Part shown: positions 50,303 through 57,182 of the stretch, one piece after another | Layout: every line of letters starts with the position of its first letter | Numbering within the stretch: the stretch's first letter is position 1 | Assembly (NCBI GenBank): GCA_963841735.1 | Contig: CAWJDT010000005.1 | Location: forward strand, 96,001-160,000 | Direction: 5' to 3' | Origin: an uncultured Actinomycetes bacterium | GTDB lineage: Bacteria; Actinomycetota; Thermoleophilia; RBG-16-64-13 | Length of the DNA stretch: 64,000 bases | The notes under the pieces: model-generated | Told to the model about the DNA's origin: nothing | The model's input: only the letters and a program-made list of their open reading frames with translations | Database searches by the model: none | Made by a program: the position numbers and the translations under genes

Positions 50303-50842
50303 CTACTCCCGCCAGTACTCGGGCCTGTTGATCGCATCGGCACACACCACCGCACCTCGCACAGATCCGATAGCTCCAGGAGTCAGAGCCTGAACCATCC
50401 ACGCACCGGCATCTTCTTCGGCAATCGGAAATGGAGCAGCGAAACCCAGATGTCCTGCTGGTTCGAATCCATGGCGCGGGTAGTACTCGGGGTGTCCGAG
50501 CACGAAGACCAAGTCGACTCCCGCTTCCGAAAGCACATGCAAACCTTGTTCAATCAACTTGCCACCAATCCCTCGCCGCTGAACATCGGGGACGACGGCC
50601 AGCGGGGCCAGCAGACTGACACTCACAGCCTCGGACGCCTCTGAGATCCGGGCGGCTGTAAACAGAATATGGCCCACGGCTCGCTCGCCCTCAAAGGCAA
50701 GCAGGGAGAGGAGCGGTGAAGCACTTGGATCGTTCAGTAGGTTGCTGACAAGATCAGCTTCGTCGTCCTCGCCGAAAGCCTCACGCTCGATCCGCAGCAC
50801 GTCCGACAGGTCTGACTCCGTAGCCGATGCGATTCTCACCAT
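50303..50842 (-). CDS. GNAT N-acetyltransferase (YhbS-like), gene cassette
   Basis: VGHILF, LAPLAVVPDVQRRGIGGKLI, VFVLGHPEYYPRHGF. Confidence 0.9.
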   Translation of the reverse strand: MVRIASATESDLSDVLRIEREAFGEDDEADLVSNLLNDPSASPLLSLLAFEGERAVGHILFTAARISEASEAVSVSLLAPLAVVPDVQRRGIGGKLIEQGLHVLSEAGVDLVFVLGHPEYYPRHGFEPAGHLGFAAPFPIAEEDAGAWMVQALTPGAIGSVRGAVVCADAINRPEYWRE

Positions 50843-50873
50843 TCCTCCGATCTTCGCAACCCTTTGAGGCTAC

Positions 50874-50932
50874 GCCTAACGTCTCTGCCGGTCAGCGGCA
50901 GCCGCAGGCTGACTACTACTGGCTTGTTAGGC
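50874..50932 (-). mobile_element. attC site (59 bp) of the hicBA cassette
   Basis: GCCTAAC...GTTAGGC termini with an internal imperfect palindrome, 7 nt after the hicA stop. Confidence 0.85.
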
Positions 50933-50939
50933 CGGACTT

Positions 50940-51164
50940 TCACAGAAGACTCAGGAACTCGTCAATGGTCAAATGGACATCGGCCGCAATCTTGCGCAAC
51001 AGCGTAGGAGAGATATCGCGACCTGCGTGGAAAGGAACAGTGGTGCAGCGACCATCAGGGTGTCGGAACTGCTTGTGCGAGCCGCGCTGCCTGACCTCGC
51101 CGAAACCGTGCGCCTCGAGTAGAGCGACGACCTGCCTAGGCTTGAGGACCGGCAGGGTACCCAA
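50940..51164 (-). CDS. hicA: HicA toxin
   Basis: LEAHGF.EVRQRGSHKQFRHPDGR.TTVPFH. Confidence 0.92.
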   Translation of the reverse strand: MGTLPVLKPRQVVALLEAHGFGEVRQRGSHKQFRHPDGRCTTVPFHAGRDISPTLLRKIAADVHLTIDEFLSLL

Positions 51165-51166
51165 GG

Positions 51167-51376
51167 TCAGGCAACCTGGACTGTCCGCACGTCGACGAAC
51201 TCCGACTCAAGCGTCGGCTGACCGTCTTCCAGCAGCATCTCGATTACCTCGCGCAGATTCTGCTGCAGTTCATCAATGTCGGAGCCTTGGGTGTGTGCGC
51301 CTGGCCACCCCGGAACATAACCGACGAAGACACCGGTCTCAGGGTCCCGTTCGACGACAAAACGATAGGAACGCAC
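51167..51376 (-). CDS. hicB: HicB antitoxin (short form without DNA-binding domain)
   Basis: VVERD..FVGYVPGWPGAHTQG..ELQQNLREVIEML; GGAGG RBS before GTG 51376. Confidence 0.9.
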   Translation of the reverse strand: MRSYRFVVERDPETGVFVGYVPGWPGAHTQGSDIDELQQNLREVIEMLLEDGQPTLESEFVDVRTVQVA

Positions 51377-51432
51377 GGGCTCACCTCCTCGATACAACCA
51401 TACGATAGCCTACATCGCCACGGACGGTATCG

Positions 51433-51493
51433 ACCTAACGTCGTAGCCGGTCAGCCGCAGCCGCAGGCTGACTGCTGCACTTCTAAGTTGAAG
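51433..51493 (-). mobile_element. attC site (R'' half atypical), similar to 50874-50932
   Basis: ACCTAAC-GTCGTAGCCGGTCAGCCGCAGCCGCAGGCTGACTGCTGCAC..GTTGAAG; shares its core with the downstream attC. Confidence 0.7.
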
Positions 51494-51770
51494 TCACACA
51501 TCACCGTACCACCTCAGAAATGAAACGCGGTCATCGAGCGCTGCCGAAGCCCACCACAGGATCGGCCCCGCATACGGCCCCGCCGGCCAGCCGACGATCA
51601 CGGAGCCTTGGCCCTAGACGAGGCTGCGACTGAGGCACGGCCTGGGCCATGTTATTCGGCCACCACAGCCGCTCGCTGGAATCGGCCGAGACGATGACCA
51701 CCACCCTGTAGAAGAGAACGTCCTACTCAGAGGAAACGTTGCACTTCAAACTTGAAGTCAGGCAGTGGCC

Positions 51771-52790
51771 TCACTTCTCTCGCCACACGTAGTTGCCATC
51801 TAGGTCGATGTAGGCCATCTTCCCGTTCTCCTCTTCGACACGAACCAGTCCACCCCGGAAGTCCTGTGTGACCCTGAACTGCGTGGGAATAACCAGGGTG
51901 CCCGACTCGTCCATGAAGCCCCATGATCCCTCGGAGGTCTCCGGATCTTCGCCTGCCTCCAGCGCGGCTATGATCCCTCCACGGAGTACGGCCGCTCGTC
52001 CTTCCTTCAAGCCCATCACCTGGTCGTAGTCCAGTGTCTTGAGCACCCGTCCCGTCGTGTCGATGAGTTCGTACTTGAAGAAGTCGTACTCGACCACGGC
52101 GAGACCGTTGCTGAAAGGTGTGGCGCCATCGAATTGAGGCTTGATGACGTAGCCACCCTGCCGGTTTATGTAACCGTAACCGCCACCTGTCCGAACAGCG
52201 GCCAGACCTTCGCTGAAGTCGCCCACTGTAGTAGCCCACCGTAGTCGAATGACTACCTCACCCGACGTGTCTATGAAGCCATAACCTTCCTCCAGAAGCA
52301 CCCCGGCCAGACCCTCATGGAACTCGTAGGCCCCCTCGAACTCCGGTGGGATCACCACTTCACCGGTCTTGTCGATGTAGCCTATTCCTGAATCGGTGAC
52401 AAGTTGTGCTCGGCCGTCGAAGAAGGGGCCAACGTCCGCGAACTGGGGAGCGATCAACATCTTCCCCGACTCGTCGATGAACCCCCAGTCATCTCCTACC
52501 CTGACGGCCGCCACCCCATCAGAGAAATCCCAGGCTTCCTCGTACTGGAAGCCAAGGACCAAGCGACCGGTCTTGTCGATGAACCCCCATTTGCTACCCT
52601 GTCTCACGGGGAAGAGCGTGGGAAGCGTTGGTGCCGGGCCGGACCATTCTTCGATCGTTGCGTTCGTTACGCCTTGGATGGTGGTGTCCGTGAGTCTGCT
52701 GTCGCTATTCACGTTGTCGCAGGCCCCTAGCAAGCCAGCTGCAACGACTGTGATAACGATGACGACAAGCCATAGCAGGCGACTCTGCAC
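51771..52790 (-). CDS. WG-repeat (KWG) lipoprotein, gene cassette
   Basis: Lipobox LGAC; repeated FSxGLAAV..WGFIDxxG units. Confidence 0.88.
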   Translation of the reverse strand: MQSRLLWLVVIVITVVAAGLLGACDNVNSDSRLTDTTIQGVTNATIEEWSGPAPTLPTLFPVRQGSKWGFIDKTGRLVLGFQYEEAWDFSDGVAAVRVGDDWGFIDESGKMLIAPQFADVGPFFDGRAQLVTDSGIGYIDKTGEVVIPPEFEGAYEFHEGLAGVLLEEGYGFIDTSGEVVIRLRWATTVGDFSEGLAAVRTGGGYGYINRQGGYVIKPQFDGATPFSNGLAVVEYDFFKYELIDTTGRVLKTLDYDQVMGLKEGRAAVLRGGIIAALEAGEDPETSEGSWGFMDESGTLVIPTQFRVTQDFRGGLVRVEEENGKMAYIDLDGNYVWREK

Positions 52791-52908
52791 TTGTTTCCCC
52801 CCTCTTCGGAGTGACGCCCAGCTCAAGCATCACCACGGACGCTGGCCCCTACGCTTGGGTTGCGACCAAACGCTATCCCGATGTTTGAAGTCCACGAAGC
52901 ACGCATCT

Positions 52909-52999
52909 GGCTAACGTTCTAGCGCGTCAGCCGCGCCCGTTGGCCATGGTACTCCATGCAACAGACAACGCCGGTGTCGGTTGCACGCACTTGTTAGAC
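52909..52999 (-). mobile_element. attC site (91 bp) of the first cassette
   Basis: Minus strand GTCTAACAAGTGCGTGCAACCGAC..GCGGCTGACGCGCTAGAACGTTAGCC; R'' GTCTAAC is complementary to the GTTAGAC at the cassette start. Confidence 0.88.
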
Positions 53000-53007
53000 A
53001 CGAAGCG

Positions 53008-53817
53008 TCAGCCACACAACTCACCAACCCTCACGACATCAAGCTGTGCTATCGACGAAAGCGCTCTCTTTGCCTTGCGAAAGACCTCTGCCTGGAACCT
53101 CTCCGTGACAACCGCCTCCATATAGGGCGCCGCCGCCATGATCCGAACGTCCGTAACGTCGCTTGCCTCATGAACCCGCCCCGGCTCACGAATACGATAG
53201 AACTGCGAATACAGCATAGCCTGCAGCGCAGGGAATCGGTTTATGTCCAGTGTGCTACCCGAGTTCAGGAGTCCCGCCGTCCAAGATTGGTGATTCTCGG
53301 CCAAGTGAACAACCACTGACTCGGCGACGTACTGGTCAGCTTTGCGACCGTCGTTCGAACGTGAGACCCACTCCCGGAGGGTGTCATTCTCATCGTCGCG
53401 CCACCCGGCCTCAAGCTCGATCATCCAGTCCTGCACAAAGAGCTTCTCTAGGAACGGCCGCAGGAAGTGCCTGTCTTCGGACCCAGCCAGAGTGAAGGCG
53501 TTGAGCAACGGAGGTCCAGCTGGATAGTGGTGATAGGCCGCCACCTCTGCCGCCACGATGCGCGAATATGGCTCAAGAAGGAAGCTCGGATACCTTGAGA
53601 AGAAGTCGAGCCAGGCATCGTATAGTCGTAGATGCTCTGGGGCACGACGCAATTCGATGACGTTGTAGATTGTCCAGCATGGCGCCCAATCACTTGGGGG
53701 AAACCGCTCGATGAAAGCGTGCCCAAAGGTGTCGCGATGCTCGACGATGTTGCTCAAGGCGTTTGTGTCGAGCAAGCACAGTCTGTACTCGGTGCCGCTG
53801 TCGCTCATCCACGACAT
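53008..53817 (-). CDS. Hypothetical protein with PIN-like motifs, first gene cassette
   Basis: LLDTNAL near the N-terminus, DVTDVRI and VVTER near the C-terminus; bounded by attI-like and attC sites. Confidence 0.55.
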   Translation of the reverse strand: MSWMSDSGTEYRLCLLDTNALSNIVEHRDTFGHAFIERFPPSDWAPCWTIYNVIELRRAPEHLRLYDAWLDFFSRYPSFLLEPYSRIVAAEVAAYHHYPAGPPLLNAFTLAGSEDRHFLRPFLEKLFVQDWMIELEAGWRDDENDTLREWVSRSNDGRKADQYVAESVVVHLAENHQSWTAGLLNSGSTLDINRFPALQAMLYSQFYRIREPGRVHEASDVTDVRIMAAAPYMEAVVTERFQAEVFRKAKRALSSIAQLDVVRVGELCG

Positions 53818-53844
53818 TCGCGCCGCGCGCCTCCCAGCGTCTGT

Positions 53845-53863
53845 GTCTAACAATGCTTATCCA
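53845..53863 (-). mobile_element. attI-like recombination site
   Basis: Minus strand TGGATAAGCATTGTTAGAC: GTTRRRY core with no attC palindrome upstream, at the intI-proximal end of the array. Confidence 0.6.
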
Positions 53864-53896
53864 GTCTGCCCAAATAGACCGACGAAGCACCAGGGT

Positions 53897-53999
53897 GTCT
53901 GCATAACTCCGGGTGCGAATCTCAAAACGGCCCCCCTGGTCGGCCTTCCGAGCGGTTTCTGAACCCAGGACGCCCGCTCGGTCTTGGGGTTATGCAGAC
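53897..53999. repeat. Inverted repeat GTCTGCATAAC / GTTATGCAGAC in the intI-attI spacer
   Basis: 11-bp perfect arms at 53897-53907 and 53989-53999. Confidence 0.7.
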
Positions 54000-54000
54000 T

Positions 54001-54367
54001 TCCATGAGAAGCCGGCCGGTGTCAAGAGCGATTCTTGGGTTGCTTCTTCCTCCTCTGCTCGGTTTCTATCATCCCTCTTCCGCCGCGAAGAGCCAAGACC
54101 ACGGCCACGCTTCCATTCGCACTTTTTGTCGGGAACCTATGGCGGGACCCGGTGCACGTTGGGGTCCGGCCGGGGGAAGCGCTGCTATCTGTATAGCGGC
54201 CTTGGGGACGGCACCGGGTTGGTGTCGTTCTGTACGGCCGAGTCTGTGTGCGCAGTCGCTTTCACCCTGGGCGGTTGGTCTTTTTGCTGGTCTCCTGCGA
54301 TGGGTTCACCCGCCGGTCTTCCTTGGTTATCGATCCTTCCCGTCGGCATCTCTCATCTTCACCGCTC
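54001..54367 (-). ncRNA. Putative bridge/seekRNA region of the IS1111-type element (exact ends unknown)
   Basis: Contains CAGACT, TATACAGAT and ATGGAAG segments matching the insertion flanks and the IS end. Confidence 0.6.
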
Positions 54368-55450
54368 CTAGGTGGTGGGCGCAGTCTCGCCGCGGAGCCG
54401 GACGTTGCGCAGTGGCTCGTAGACCTCACCGGTCCTCCAGAGGTGCAGGAGGAGCACCGAGAGCTTGCGGGCCACCGCCACTACCGCTCGCTTCTTGCCC
54501 CGCTTGCCGCCCTGCGCGGCCAAGGCAAGACCCCAACGCCTGAGATCCGAGTCCGGGCCGAAGGGCCCGAGGATGTAGTGGGCGGCGCTCACGAGGAGCC
54601 AGCGCAGGTGCTCGTCCCCGGCTTTGGTGATGCGCAGCTGAGGCTCCAGGGAACCGGAGCTTGCCTGCCGGGGCCTGAGGCCGAGATACGAGCCCACCGA
54701 GCGGCACTTGGGGAAGCGCTCGGGATCTTCCACGGTAAGGACATAGACTGTGGCCGTAAGCGTGCCCACGCCGGGCACCTGGGAGAGAAGCGCGGTCTCT
54801 GGGTAGCGCTCCTTGGCCATGTCTTCGATCTTCTGATCGAGAGCGCGGATCTCATCGGAGATGTTCTGGATGACGGTGAGGACCGGAGCCAGGGCGGGAG
54901 CAAGCTCCTCGGGGACACACGGCCCGGCCTTTTGGGCAAAGACGTCGCTCGCGCAGGTGGGCAGGCGGCTGCCCAAGGACTTCGTGCAGCCGCGGGCATG
55001 ACTGATCAGACGGGTGCGAGCCCTGACCAGGGCATTGCGACTGCGCACAAGCGCGAGGTCGGACTGGGTCTCGGCTCTCCGATGGGTGAGGGGGGCCAGC
55101 AGCTCCGGGTCCAGACGACCGACCCGGGCCAGGTACTCGGCGTCCACCCGGTCTGACTTCGAGTCGTTCTGGTAGATGAAGCGGAGCTTGCGGGGATTGG
55201 CCACGACAACGTCGTGTCCAAGTTCGGAAAGCAGACGGCTAACCCAGGGGGAGTGGGTGCCGGCCTCGATCACGATGCGTAGCGGATCCGCCCCGGAGAA
55301 GCGGCGACGCAAGGCTTCCGGCTTGGTCGTCACCCGGCCCTCCTCGGTCACCTCGCCCGCTTCGTCGAGCACACAGATCTGACAACAACGGTCGCTCAGA
55401 TCGAGACCCACGGTCACCTTCGCTTGCTCGGTGGTGCTAGCATCGCACAT
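54368..55450 (-). CDS. IS110-family transposase (DEDD recombinase)
   Basis: VGLDLS, IEAG, KSDRVDA, VPGVG, SYLGLRP..SSG, ITKAGD, AVVAVARKL. Confidence 0.95.
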   Translation of the reverse strand: MCDASTTEQAKVTVGLDLSDRCCQICVLDEAGEVTEEGRVTTKPEALRRRFSGADPLRIVIEAGTHSPWVSRLLSELGHDVVVANPRKLRFIYQNDSKSDRVDAEYLARVGRLDPELLAPLTHRRAETQSDLALVRSRNALVRARTRLISHARGCTKSLGSRLPTCASDVFAQKAGPCVPEELAPALAPVLTVIQNISDEIRALDQKIEDMAKERYPETALLSQVPGVGTLTATVYVLTVEDPERFPKCRSVGSYLGLRPRQASSGSLEPQLRITKAGDEHLRWLLVSAAHYILGPFGPDSDLRRWGLALAAQGGKRGKKRAVVAVARKLSVLLLHLWRTGEVYEPLRNVRLRGETAPTT

Positions 55451-55551
55451 GGCTGGCCTCCTTCATTTGGGCCCACGAGCCCGACTCTGATTGGGGACCT
55501 CACGGTACTCCGGGGGAGGTCGGCCTTCTCATCCCATCTGTATATGCAGCC

Positions 55552-55765
55552 CTACAGGTAGTCAAGCGGACTGCGCACTCCCTGGCCACCCCCCTGGCCA
55601 CCCGGGTTAGAACATGGACGTAGATCATGGTGGTGCGGATGTCGTACCCGGCCTCCAGCAGGTGGGTGGCGAAGGAATGCCGCAACGTGTGACAGCCGAC
55701 GTGCTTGACCACGCCGGCCCGGCTCACCGCCTCCTTCATCGCGCGCAGGTGATTTTGCGGCGGGA
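55552..55765 (-). pseudogene. intI: Integron integrase C-terminal remnant
   Basis: [46 protein letters not shown], then frameshift to GVRSPLDYL* (typical IntI end); the VQELLGH segment and the N-terminus are missing. Confidence 0.85.
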
Positions 55766-55783
55766 GAAGTCGAGGCCCTTTGG

Positions 55784-56152
55784 CTAGACCCCCCGCATCG
55801 ATTGCCGGTACAGCGCGACCTGCGATTCGGACATCTTCTCCACCCACATAACCAGCAGGGCCTTGAGGTCCTCGCTCTGGTCGGAGACCGGCCCGTCCCC
55901 AGCCTCAAGCCTATCCAGCACCTCGAACTCGAACGCTTCCGAGCCCAGCTCTGTCCAGTCCGCCTGAAGCTCCTTGTCTGGGTGTGAACCCAAATCGAGC
56001 TGGAACCTCTGGCGGTTCAGCATTCCTGGGAGATTGGGACTCGACCCGATCAGCGACTTCCCGGTCTGCGTGTTGCGCACGAGGTAGATGCCCGCGGGCT
56101 GCGGAGTCTCCTTGTACTCGCGGATGAGCGCTTTGCGGTCTATGCTTGTCAC
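55784..56152 (-). CDS. GIY-YIG nuclease family protein
   Basis: [42 protein letters not shown]. Confidence 0.8.
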
Positions 56153-56189
56153 CAGTTCAGCTCCTGCTCGGTTGTGTTGGCGAGTGACC

Positions 56190-57182
56190 TCATGTGGCCA
56201 CCCCGGCATATATGCTTAGAATGCTATCCATTTCCGCGTTCACAGCCGCGTCTACCACCCGCCGCTCCTCGTCGGCCGCAAACCAGTCAAGGGCCCGGCG
56301 GATGCCATCCCGGAAGGGGATGGTGGCCCGAAAGCCGGGCACGAACTCCTTGATCTTGCTGTTGTCGAAAGCGACGCTCCACGTCTTGTCGCCCAACAGG
56401 CTCCCAGCCAGTTCCGGCACCACCTTCGCGATGAAATCGGAGGGGATGTGCACGATCTTCGCCTCGACCCCCAGCGCCTCGGCGATGCCCTGGTATATCT
56501 GATTCCAGGTGAGCACCTCGTCGGTGGTGATGTGAAACGCCTCGCCCAGCGCCCGCTCGTTGCCCAGCAGCCCCAAAAGCCCCTGCGCCAAGTCGTCGGC
56601 GTGCGTCACCACCCAGAGCGACGAGCCATCGCCATGAACTATGACCGGCAGGCCCCGCAACAGCCGGTCGGCCAGCGTGTAGGTGCCCCACCCCCCGAGT
56701 GCGATGGGGAGGTTGGCGCCGTAGGTCATCGAGGGACGGACGATGGTGGCGGGAAAGCCCTCTTCGCGGTACGCCTGCATGAGTCTCCTCTCGCAGGCGA
56801 TCTTGCCGCGGGCGTAATCCCAGAACGGGTTGCTCAGCGGCGTCGACTCAGTGATGAGGTAGTGGTCGGGCGGCTTCTGGTAAGCGGAGGCCGAGCTGAT
56901 GAAGACGTACTGCTTCACCCGCCCTCGAAAGAGGCTGAGGTCGCGCTCGATATCATCCGCGGTATAGGCGACCCAATCGACCACAACGTCAAAGTCCAGA
57001 CCCTGAAGAGCGGCGCGGACCTCCTCGGGGCGGTGTATGTCGGCGACCATGCTATGGCTGCCGGGCATATCCGCGATGCGCGCTCCGCGATTGAGCAGAT
57101 AGAGGTCGAGCCCTCTGGAGATCGCCATCCTGCTGGCCGCGGCGCTGATCATCCCAGTGCCGCCGATAAACAGAACCCTCAT
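56190..57182 (-). CDS. NAD-dependent epimerase/dehydratase (atypical SDR)
   Basis: FIGGTGMIS, FISSASAY, YARGK, IVRPS. Confidence 0.88.
   Translation of the reverse strand: MRVLFIGGTGMISAAASRMAISRGLDLYLLNRGARIADMPGSHSMVADIHRPEEVRAALQGLDFDVVVDWVAYTADDIERDLSLFRGRVKQYVFISSASAYQKPPDHYLITESTPLSNPFWDYARGKIACERRLMQAYREEGFPATIVRPSMTYGANLPIALGGWGTYTLADRLLRGLPVIVHGDGSSLWVVTHADDLAQGLLGLLGNERALGEAFHITTDEVLTWNQIYQGIAEALGVEAKIVHIPSDFIAKVVPELAGSLLGDKTWSVAFDNSKIKEFVPGFRATIPFRDGIRRALDWFAADEERRVVDAAVNAEMDSILSIYAGVAT

Follow-up and report, generated by a model that had tools for sequence, protein, structure and literature searches.

An IS1111-family insertion sequence with a predicted guide RNA matching the integron platform between intI and attI

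We analyzed a 64,000-nt stretch of DNA, hereafter called the window, from an uncultured Actinomycetes bacterium (contig CAWJDT010000005.1, positions 96,001 to 160,000, forward strand), whose genome comprises 2.8 Mb in 8 contigs. On the minus strand of the window at 54001–55539 lies an insertion sequence (IS) of the IS1111 family, which is very probably active or recently active and uses its own non-coding RNA to select its insertion site, the platform of an integron. The anatomy of the IS, its site specificity, the empty sites and the covariation of guides with targets were established by sequence comparison and carry this reading. Five near-identical copies occupy the same site between the stop codon of the integron integrase gene (intI) and the attI crossover, and the sequences flanking this site are matched by two variable stretches of a conserved non-coding scaffold, which change together with the target in 27 related lineages.

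Anatomy of the IS and its insertion site in the integron platform

The IS and its parts are as follows.

54001..55539, minus strand: insertion sequence, 1539 bp, with one AG core counted with the left end
54368..55450, minus strand: transposase gene, 360 aa (stop codon included), with a DEDD/RuvC-like N-terminal domain and a PF02371 C-terminal domain
55521..55532, minus strand: left subterminal inverted repeat ATGAGAAGGCCG, preceded by the 7-bp extension AGATGGG (55539-55533)
54004..54015, minus strand: right subterminal inverted repeat CCGGCTTCTCAT, followed by the 3-bp extension GGA (54003-54001)

Read on the minus strand, the IS starts with AG-ATGGG-ATGAGAAGGCCG and ends with CCGGCTTCTCAT-GGA, and the AG at 54000-53999 is the target's own copy of the core, located outside the IS proper. 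The transposase matched PF01548 (E = 2e-17), PF02371 (E = 1.5e-18) and the NCBIfam model NF033542, "IS110 family RNA-guided transposase" (217.7 bits, cut-off 140), and the solved recombinases ISCro4 (E = 1e-11) and IS621 (E = 3e-10) were found to be its distant homologues. Its translation carries GLRPRQASSG, a form of the motif GL-P----S(T)G that is described as an IS1111 feature of the C-terminal domain (PMC11187229). Subterminal inverted repeats of ~11-13 bp with extensions of 7 bp on the left and 3 bp on the right are given as hallmarks of this family by the same source (PMC11187229); the repeats of the present IS agree at 10 of 12 positions (ATGAGAAGGCCG vs. ATGAGAAGCCGG), and their extensions have this geometry when one AG is counted with the left end. 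The same ends were found in related IS lineages. Downstream of the transposase gene extends a non-coding end of 367 nt (54367-54001), with only 89 nt upstream. Among the 25 best matches listed from a collection of at least 5000 plasmid records, the transposase identity was ≤37%, and it was below 60% for all records; the lineage thus appears to stand far from the plasmid-borne ones.

The five IS copies in the genome differ from one another by 0-2 bases (99.87-100% identical). Their junctions are identical in 5/5 cases and in the same orientation, ...GCATATAC-AG-(IS)-AG-TCTG(C/T)ATA..., and the insertion site at all of them is GCATATAC-AG-TCTGCATAAC, located 12-13 nt past the intI stop where that stop is kept. 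An empty paralogous site with one mismatch, GCACATAC-AG-TCTGCATAAA, was found in the same genome. In addition, the exact 11-mer TATACAGTCTG runs uninterrupted right behind intI at 4 of 16 intI loci of related genomes (G013, G017, G020 and G035); G013 has the full-length empty target GCATATAC-AG-TCTGCATAAC, and its genome gave no match to the window IS. Since the empty sites equal left flank, AG and right flank, they fix the IS ends and the AG core and indicate the absence of target duplication. Site-specific insertion in one orientation without duplication, as expected for IS1111 members, was hence observed for 5/5 copies together with the empty sites. Within the window's own genome, the exact 11-mer was never found unoccupied, and its 15 one-mismatch sites were all unoccupied. 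The IS relatives in related genomes (≤84% nucleotide identity) lie at other targets such as TAGC-AG, and no further integron insertions were found among them.

An earlier note on this DNA had assigned the element to the IS1111 type, and this is sustained by the domains, NF033542, GLRPRQASSG, the repeats, the 3' non-coding end and the site-specific insertion. The length and place of the 367-nt end were also given correctly. Of the span 53999-55544 proposed there, the element stands but the outer limits do not, as they include junction bases. The AG core at which removal of the IS rebuilds the target agrees with the empty paralogue and the four related-genome loci, which are also the empty alleles that the note had suggested looking for in related integrons; it had further named copies at unrelated sequences as a sign against its reading, and within the genome all five are at the platform site.

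The integron platform in the window consists of the following parts.

55552..55745, minus strand: integron integrase gene remnant, C-terminal part only, roughly aa 250-321, with an internal deletion
55540..55547, minus strand: left half of the target, GCATATAC, 4 nt past the intI stop codon (TAG 55554-55552)
53897..53999, minus strand: right half of the target and platform palindrome GTCTGCATAAC...GTTATGCAGAC, an inverted repeat with arms 53999-53986 and 53910-53897
53845..53851, minus strand: putative attI crossover G|TTAGAC, at the end of the conserved CAGACTGGATAAGCATTG

Every IS copy and the empty paralogue adjoin the stop of an integron integrase gene or of its remnant. Six such platforms are present in the 2.8-Mb genome (the window, 53845-54000 and 55540-55554; C1:810583; C1:1356026; C1:~403800; C1:~392030; and C6:~31550), with intI intact in two and decayed in four. 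An intact paralogue scored 486 bits against the integron integrase model TIGR02249 (cut-off 265), and the window remnant was matched by tblastn with this paralogue over aa 250-314 at 69%. The integrase and the cassettes point in the same direction. A six-locus alignment gave the order of intI end, target, palindrome and a conserved stretch ending in CAGACTGGATAAGCATTG|TTAGRC, after which the loci run on into differing cassettes, and the same layout was found behind intI in related genomes. An attI crossover is expected to have the form G|TTRRRY, and the end of platform homology shows this form. As the platforms can be aligned up to ...ATTG|TTAGRC and diverge after it, the crossover is placed ~150 nt beyond the insertion point. 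The palindrome of ~100 nt has conserved ends and an interior that varies between loci, folds as single-stranded DNA with z-scores of -2.4 and -3.2, and is of a type confined to the six platform loci in this genome.

The array behind attI (50303-53853, minus strand) encodes a 281-aa protein without Pfam match, a WG-repeat protein, a HicB-like/HicA toxin-antitoxin pair and a GNAT acetyltransferase. Each cassette is followed by an attC-like site, of the type GCCTAAC...GTTAGGC as read by eye, and the first cassette is common to the window and C1:810583. No IS copy was found in the cassette attC sites of the window array, and all 5/5 copies are located between the intI stop and the attI crossover, unlike the attC insertions of the IS1111-attC group. 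Judged by its fixed place before the end of platform homology, and by a palindrome type found nowhere else in the genome, the target is a platform sequence rather than an ordinary cassette attC. The earlier note's proposals of a target in the intI-attI spacer, different from attC, are thus in accord with the position before the end of homology, the empty attCs of the array and the location of the five copies. Its statement that the IS is programmed for the attI-proximal palindrome is right as to location but not as to the palindrome as a structure, because the guides read ~11-13 bases across its outer edge.

One could still regard the IS as an ordinary attC-hunting IS1111 member, with the palindrome being a cassette attC, for example that of a first cassette lacking an open reading frame, so that the target would not be new. 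The ends of attC sites follow the consensus RYYYAAC/GTTRRRY, and the palindrome ends, GCATAAC ... GTTATGC, are one position off it; conserved ends with a variable interior across loci are also like those of attC sites. IS1111 members aimed at one attC end have, moreover, been described (PMC11187229). We nevertheless consider this explanation improbable, as the palindrome has a fixed place in the six platforms and in related genomes before the end of homology (ATTG|TTAGRC), which makes it a component of the platform and not of a mobile cassette. Some relatives keep only GTCTG/CAGAC of the palindrome arms, TATAC, the left half of the target, is part of the intI-proximal spacer and not of the palindrome, canonical attCs of the same array are free of the IS, and the low transposase identity to the plasmid records given above also speaks against it.

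The flanks of the copies are far less alike than the copies themselves, showing identities of 58-96% over the right 150 nt and 62-86% over the left 100 nt. Near-identical copies in diverged flanks indicate that the copies entered already-diverged sites one by one. A duplication of the whole block (intI end, IS and palindrome) in place of separate insertions, which would make the constant flanks uninformative on target choice, could be argued from the first cassette shared by the window and C1:810583, the 96% identity of the right flank between the window and C1:1356026, and the decay of intI in 4/6 platforms. Such a duplication would however give flanks as alike as the IS copies, which are 0-2 bases apart in spite of flank identities down to 58% (right) and 62% (left) and of differing palindrome interiors and cassettes. 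In addition, a relative with an 89% identical transposase (L026) was found at an equivalent site on an unrelated metagenome contig, and related genomes without this IS also have several platforms. Block duplication is therefore held to be very improbable, more so than the attC explanation.

Several further observations were made around the platform. It is bracketed by near-inverted boxes, namely TATACAGTCTG on the intI side and TATCCAGTCTG, on the other strand, beside the attI crossover, and a further GCAGAC box is located at the inner palindrome arm. The attI-side box is one base off the IS target and was never occupied. These boxes may be candidate protein-binding sites for the integrase or a host factor. 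Upstream of the window intI remnant lie unrelated genes, including an NAD-dependent epimerase at 56190-57182.

Predicted guide RNA and its covariation with targets

The following elements were assigned to the non-coding end.

54095..54282, minus strand: predicted seekRNA/bridge RNA of ~188 nt, with a closing stem (54282-54270 with 54106-54095), a target-binding arm and a donor-binding arm
54241..54250, minus strand: top-strand (T) guide CACACAGACT, on the 5' side of the target loop after the near-invariant GCGACTGCG (54259-54251)
54187..54195, minus strand: bottom-strand (B) guide TATACAGAT, on the 3' side of the target loop before the conserved AGCAGCGC (54186-54179)
54158..54164, minus strand: probable left-end donor guide CCCCAAC, within the conserved GGACCCCAACGTGCACC, position kept in 27/27 lineages
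54110..54116, minus strand: right-end and core donor guide ATGGAAG, within the conserved AGTGCGAATGGAAGC
54020..54025, minus strand: outward-facing -35 hexamer TTGACA in the right end

Relatives of the transposase were collected from genomes (19 loci) and metagenomes (39 loci) at 41-89% amino-acid identity, making 59 loci with the window. Those with both ends in view have near-identical termini, AG-ATGGRATGAGAAG ... CTTCTCATGGA-AG, between differing flanks. A conserved non-coding scaffold was recognized by anchor patterns in 41 of the 59 loci, corresponding to 27 distinct guide pairs. It begins with the closing stem, GCGACUGCG, a variable stretch of 9-11 nt, a stem-loop and a second variable stretch ending in AGAU, and continues with GCAGCGC, GGACCCCAACNUGCACC, a hairpin, AGUGCGAAUGGAAGC and the other strand of the closing stem. 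RNAalifold paired GCGACUGC with GCAGCGC, closed the inner stem-loop, and found compensatory changes in 9/18 pairs; this pairing places the two variable stretches opposite each other across one internal loop. For the 22-pair structure in the 27-lineage alignment, 92.6% of cells were paired as compared with 24-45% for slid partners, and 13/22 pairs were changed on both sides as compared with 5-7 in the slid controls.

In the window, the T guide at the end of the first variable stretch contains CAGACT (54246-54241), which is the reverse complement of the core and right flank, AG-TCTG, and the match reaches 7 nt for the TCTGT site on contig C6. The B guide TATACAGAT of the second variable stretch (54195-54187) consists of the left flank TATAC, the core AG and a final AT that equals the opening dinucleotide of the IS left end; the same nine letters make up the left junction 55544-55536. 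The integron target of the IS reads GCATATACAGTCTGCATAAC. In the relatives, the first variable stretch was likewise the reverse complement of their own core and right flank, for example CTCCTCCCT, GGTCGCGGC, GCAGCGGACT, CGCTTCGCT and TGTCATGCT, and the second one equaled their own left flank and core, for example CTAAGAG, AGGATAG, GGGAGAG and CGGAGAG. The longest common run between T guide and flank averaged 7.04 nt for true pairs (n = 26) and 3.53 nt for 634 mismatched pairs (0/5000 permutations), while that of the B guide averaged 6.22 nt (n = 23) and 3.53 nt for 498 mismatched pairs (0/5000 permutations). The runs of the window itself are 6 (T) and 7 (B), and mismatched pairs reach at least 6 in 3.8% of 634 and at least 7 in 1.0% of 498 cases, respectively. 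Both CAGACT and TATACAGAT had been put forward as guides by the earlier note, together with a proposal to collect homologous copies and look for covariation of guide and target; the former was found to covary with the right flanks and the latter with the left flanks, over the 27 guide pairs.

The order of these guides, T before B and overlapping at the core, agrees with that described for IS1111 seekRNAs, in which the top-strand match comes first and overlaps the other at the insertion point (PMC11187229). At the level of sequence, the top-strand match of the present IS is located 5' of the bottom-strand match and the two overlap in the target. For 93% of IS1111 elements, a bridge RNA has been predicted within the right end (PMC11208160). 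Close relatives of the window IS fall into two groups of targets. L026, on a 1.8-kb metagenome contig with a transposase 89% identical, occupies TTTATAC-AG-TCTGCC immediately after the 3' end of an intI gene and has a T guide, GGCAGACT, with an 8-nt match. L027-L029, with transposases 78-83% identical, have the guides AGCAGCCT and CTAAGAG and occupy the site CTAAG-AG-GCTG outside integrons. Comparison of the window IS and L026 with L027-L029 reads as a case of natural retargeting. It is hardly credible that the transposase or a host protein, such as a neighboring bound IntI, reads the sequence or shape of DNA and that the RNA-like matches are coincidental. In favor of this view, the window matches taken alone are short (6 and 7-9 nt), the site adjoins probable IntI-binding boxes and the RNA itself is only predicted. 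Against it, the places of the matches in the scaffold are fixed and their sequences follow the target through 27 lineages, close relatives (transposase 78-89% identical) have different guides with correspondingly different targets, and published experiments found the RNA to be required and reprogrammable in the IS1111 family (PMC11187229).

A number of side observations concern the guides of relatives. Contigs of relatives from two DNA runs and one RNA-library run have G>A at 54248 in the T-guide loop (54247-54248), which on the minus strand gives CATACAGACT with one more match to the integron target than the window guide. A sister lineage, present as seven copies in one Acidobacteriota metagenome-assembled genome (L007-L013), lies in the loop of a palindrome resembling repetitive extragenic palindromes (REPs), CGCGGCGCGAA...TTCGCGCCGCG, with a 9-nt match of the T guide and a poor B guide (GTGAGAT vs. 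GGGAGAT). Six loci from different metagenomes and one Actinomycetes metagenome-assembled genome (L018, L036, L042, L057, L059 and L064) share their T guide and, with little variation, the target AGCG-AG-TCCGCTGCA(G/A)CG, which suggests that AGCG-AG-TCCGCTGCA is a widespread repeated target. In L037, L053 and L058, the right flank begins with GGTTAGGGTGAGGG or GGATTTGG and the T guide matches just 4-6 nt; this flank contains the word GTTAGGG, which might be part of an attC-like site.

Donor guides, handshake-like bases and ends of the IS

ATGGAAG, located within the conserved AGUGCGAAUGGAAGC, equals the right IS end and core, and its position is kept in the alignment. In L031, a guide ATGGCAG was accompanied by the matching change in its own right end, CATGGC-AG. 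The conservation and this change uphold the right-end guide that had been read from the window before. CCCCAAC is probably the left-end guide, and it is the weakest of the four guides. L033 has the left end ATGAG and the loop CTCAACT, matching at 6/7 positions with a corresponding change as judged by eye, and L031 varies too. For this role the earlier note had named CCAT (54142-54139), marked there as weak, with CCCATC (54304-54299) as its alternative. Both were rejected because neither occupies a conserved scaffold position, the former being in a variable hairpin and the latter upstream of the conserved scaffold.

The AT after the core in the B guide deserves mention beside the donor guides. 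AGAT is invariant in 27 lineages, and the IS left end begins with the same AT; L022 has a left end beginning with GT, and its RNA reads AGGT at that place. Handshake guides of IS621 are described to pair with partner DNA after strand exchange (PMC11208158), and by analogy the AT extension behaves like a handshake guide, with L022 as the one covarying case.

Joining of the IS ends would give TTGACA-N17-GAAGAT, of which the spacing and hexamers are as the earlier note had read them, and the -10 is weak with 3/6 consensus positions. TTGAC was located at a similar distance in 23/26 related right ends. From the analogy to ISEc11 (PMC11187229), we infer that this sequence could act as a junction promoter. 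No claim is made for a hybrid outward promoter into the cassettes, since the -10 position after insertion reads GAAGTC, which is poor as such a hexamer.

Proposed mechanism and comparison with known systems

The RNA (~54282-54095, minus strand) is predicted to fold into a target-binding arm and a donor-binding arm. On one side of the target loop, CAGACT would pair with the top strand of the core and right flank, and on the other side TATACAG (with AT) would pair with the bottom strand of the left flank and core, the extra AT matching the first two bases of the incoming IS in a handshake-like manner. ATGGAAG and probably CCCCAAC of the donor arm would hold the joined IS ends, and the DEDD transposase would exchange strands at the AG core, so that in this proposal the IS enters without duplication. 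The programmed address would be TATAC-AG-TCTG(C/T). This conserved sequence follows the intI stop by 12 nt and is located on the integrase-side border of a palindromic element that precedes attI; the integrons concerned are chromosomal and have intI and cassettes in the same direction. We infer that this RNA is produced, associates with the transposase and guides recombination, with a circle carrying the junction promoter as the intermediate.

Several points weigh against this reading. The RNA, the circle junction and a transposition event were not observed. The T guide of the window has only 6 contiguous bases (7 at one site) as compared with a clade median of 8, the T runs are merely 3-4 in L021, L037, L045 and L058, and the B runs are merely 4 in L007, L014, L020 and L049. 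CCCCAAC matches the reverse complement of AG+ATGGG at only 5/7 positions. The anchor patterns failed in 18/59 loci, many of them cut by contig ends or more diverged, and these are outside the counts. When folded alone, the 370-nt end was no better than shuffled sequences (z = -0.53), and the comparative structure was used instead. An Rfam scan of 52500-57000 with E up to 1 gave no matching family. Contigs from one RNA library cover 54011-54285 at 97-99% identity, which cannot show transcription, and the library may contain DNA.

Among public sequencing runs, none had half or more of the sequence words (best share 0.24). Four runs assembled against the region yielded contigs of relatives only, with no circle junction and no clean empty-site joint. 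One RNA-library contig joined the IS right end to attI-side-like sequence with 98 nt skipped, and the match of one soil contig ended at 54000 with unlike sequence beyond.

The IS occupies 5/6 platforms, including both with intact intI, and always in the same direction as intI and attI. Occupation could uncouple cassette capture or cassette transcription from intI. That the IS is a specialized modifier switching integron activity, with the platform box being an undescribed functional part of attI in same-direction integrons, is an unlikely though conceivable extension; if true, the IS would act as a switch of the integron.

The proposed mechanism is the published one of seekRNAs and bridge RNAs, and what is new is the address, i.e., the platform sequence between intI and attI. 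In the literature on IS1111 bridge RNAs in integrons, IS1111-attC elements and inverted-integrase integrons, no such target was found in a search made mostly at the level of titles, which is a weak negative. The window IS would represent a natural case in which an RNA-guided IS1111 element has been redirected to a second type of integron site, namely the platform and not the cassettes, in a little-studied chromosomal kind of integron with the integrase in the same direction as the cassettes. The 27 guide/target pairs constitute a small natural data set of scaffold reprogramming, including the handshake-like two-base extension of the target loop. With respect to integron biology, the target draws attention to a conserved sequence block in the intI-attI spacer. 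None of these findings alters the known mechanism.

The closest known systems include ISKpn4, ISPst6 and ISPa25 of the IS1111-attC group, which are described as residing in integrons, where they enter a repeated integron site always at one position and in one orientation, with a 3' seekRNA whose top-strand match is 5' of the bottom-strand match (PMC11187229). Going by these descriptions, they hit one end of the cassette attC, whereas the window IS hits the spacer between the intI stop and attI, once per platform, and spares the cassette attCs of its own array. ISEc11 and ISXne4 are similar in having a 3' non-coding RNA in which the T guide precedes the B guide with an overlap at the insertion point, stems that are conserved while the guide loops have diverged between relatives, and a -35 hexamer in the right end that would form a junction promoter (PMC11187229). 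The natural retargeting described for them (PMC11187229) is of the same kind as that between the window IS with L026 and L027-L029. They differ in target and transposase lineage, and their seekRNA was demonstrated experimentally, whereas that of the window IS is a prediction.

IS621 of the IS110 group shares the two internal loops for target and donor, the reading of both strands around a 2-nt core (PMC11208160, PMC11208158) and two extra handshake bases (PMC11208158), and its recombinase, like that of ISCro4, is a distant homologue of the present transposase. Unlike IS621, the window IS has its RNA 3' of the gene, a reversed guide order, long subterminal repeats and a core that reads AG in the IS orientation; the handshake-like extension (AGAT) was found on the target loop only, with none evident on the donor loop. 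Finally, ISPa11 and other REP-targeting IS1111/IS110 elements likewise use a short, conserved, repeated and partly palindromic non-coding site, while the targets of the window IS are as few as the integron platforms of its genome, namely six.

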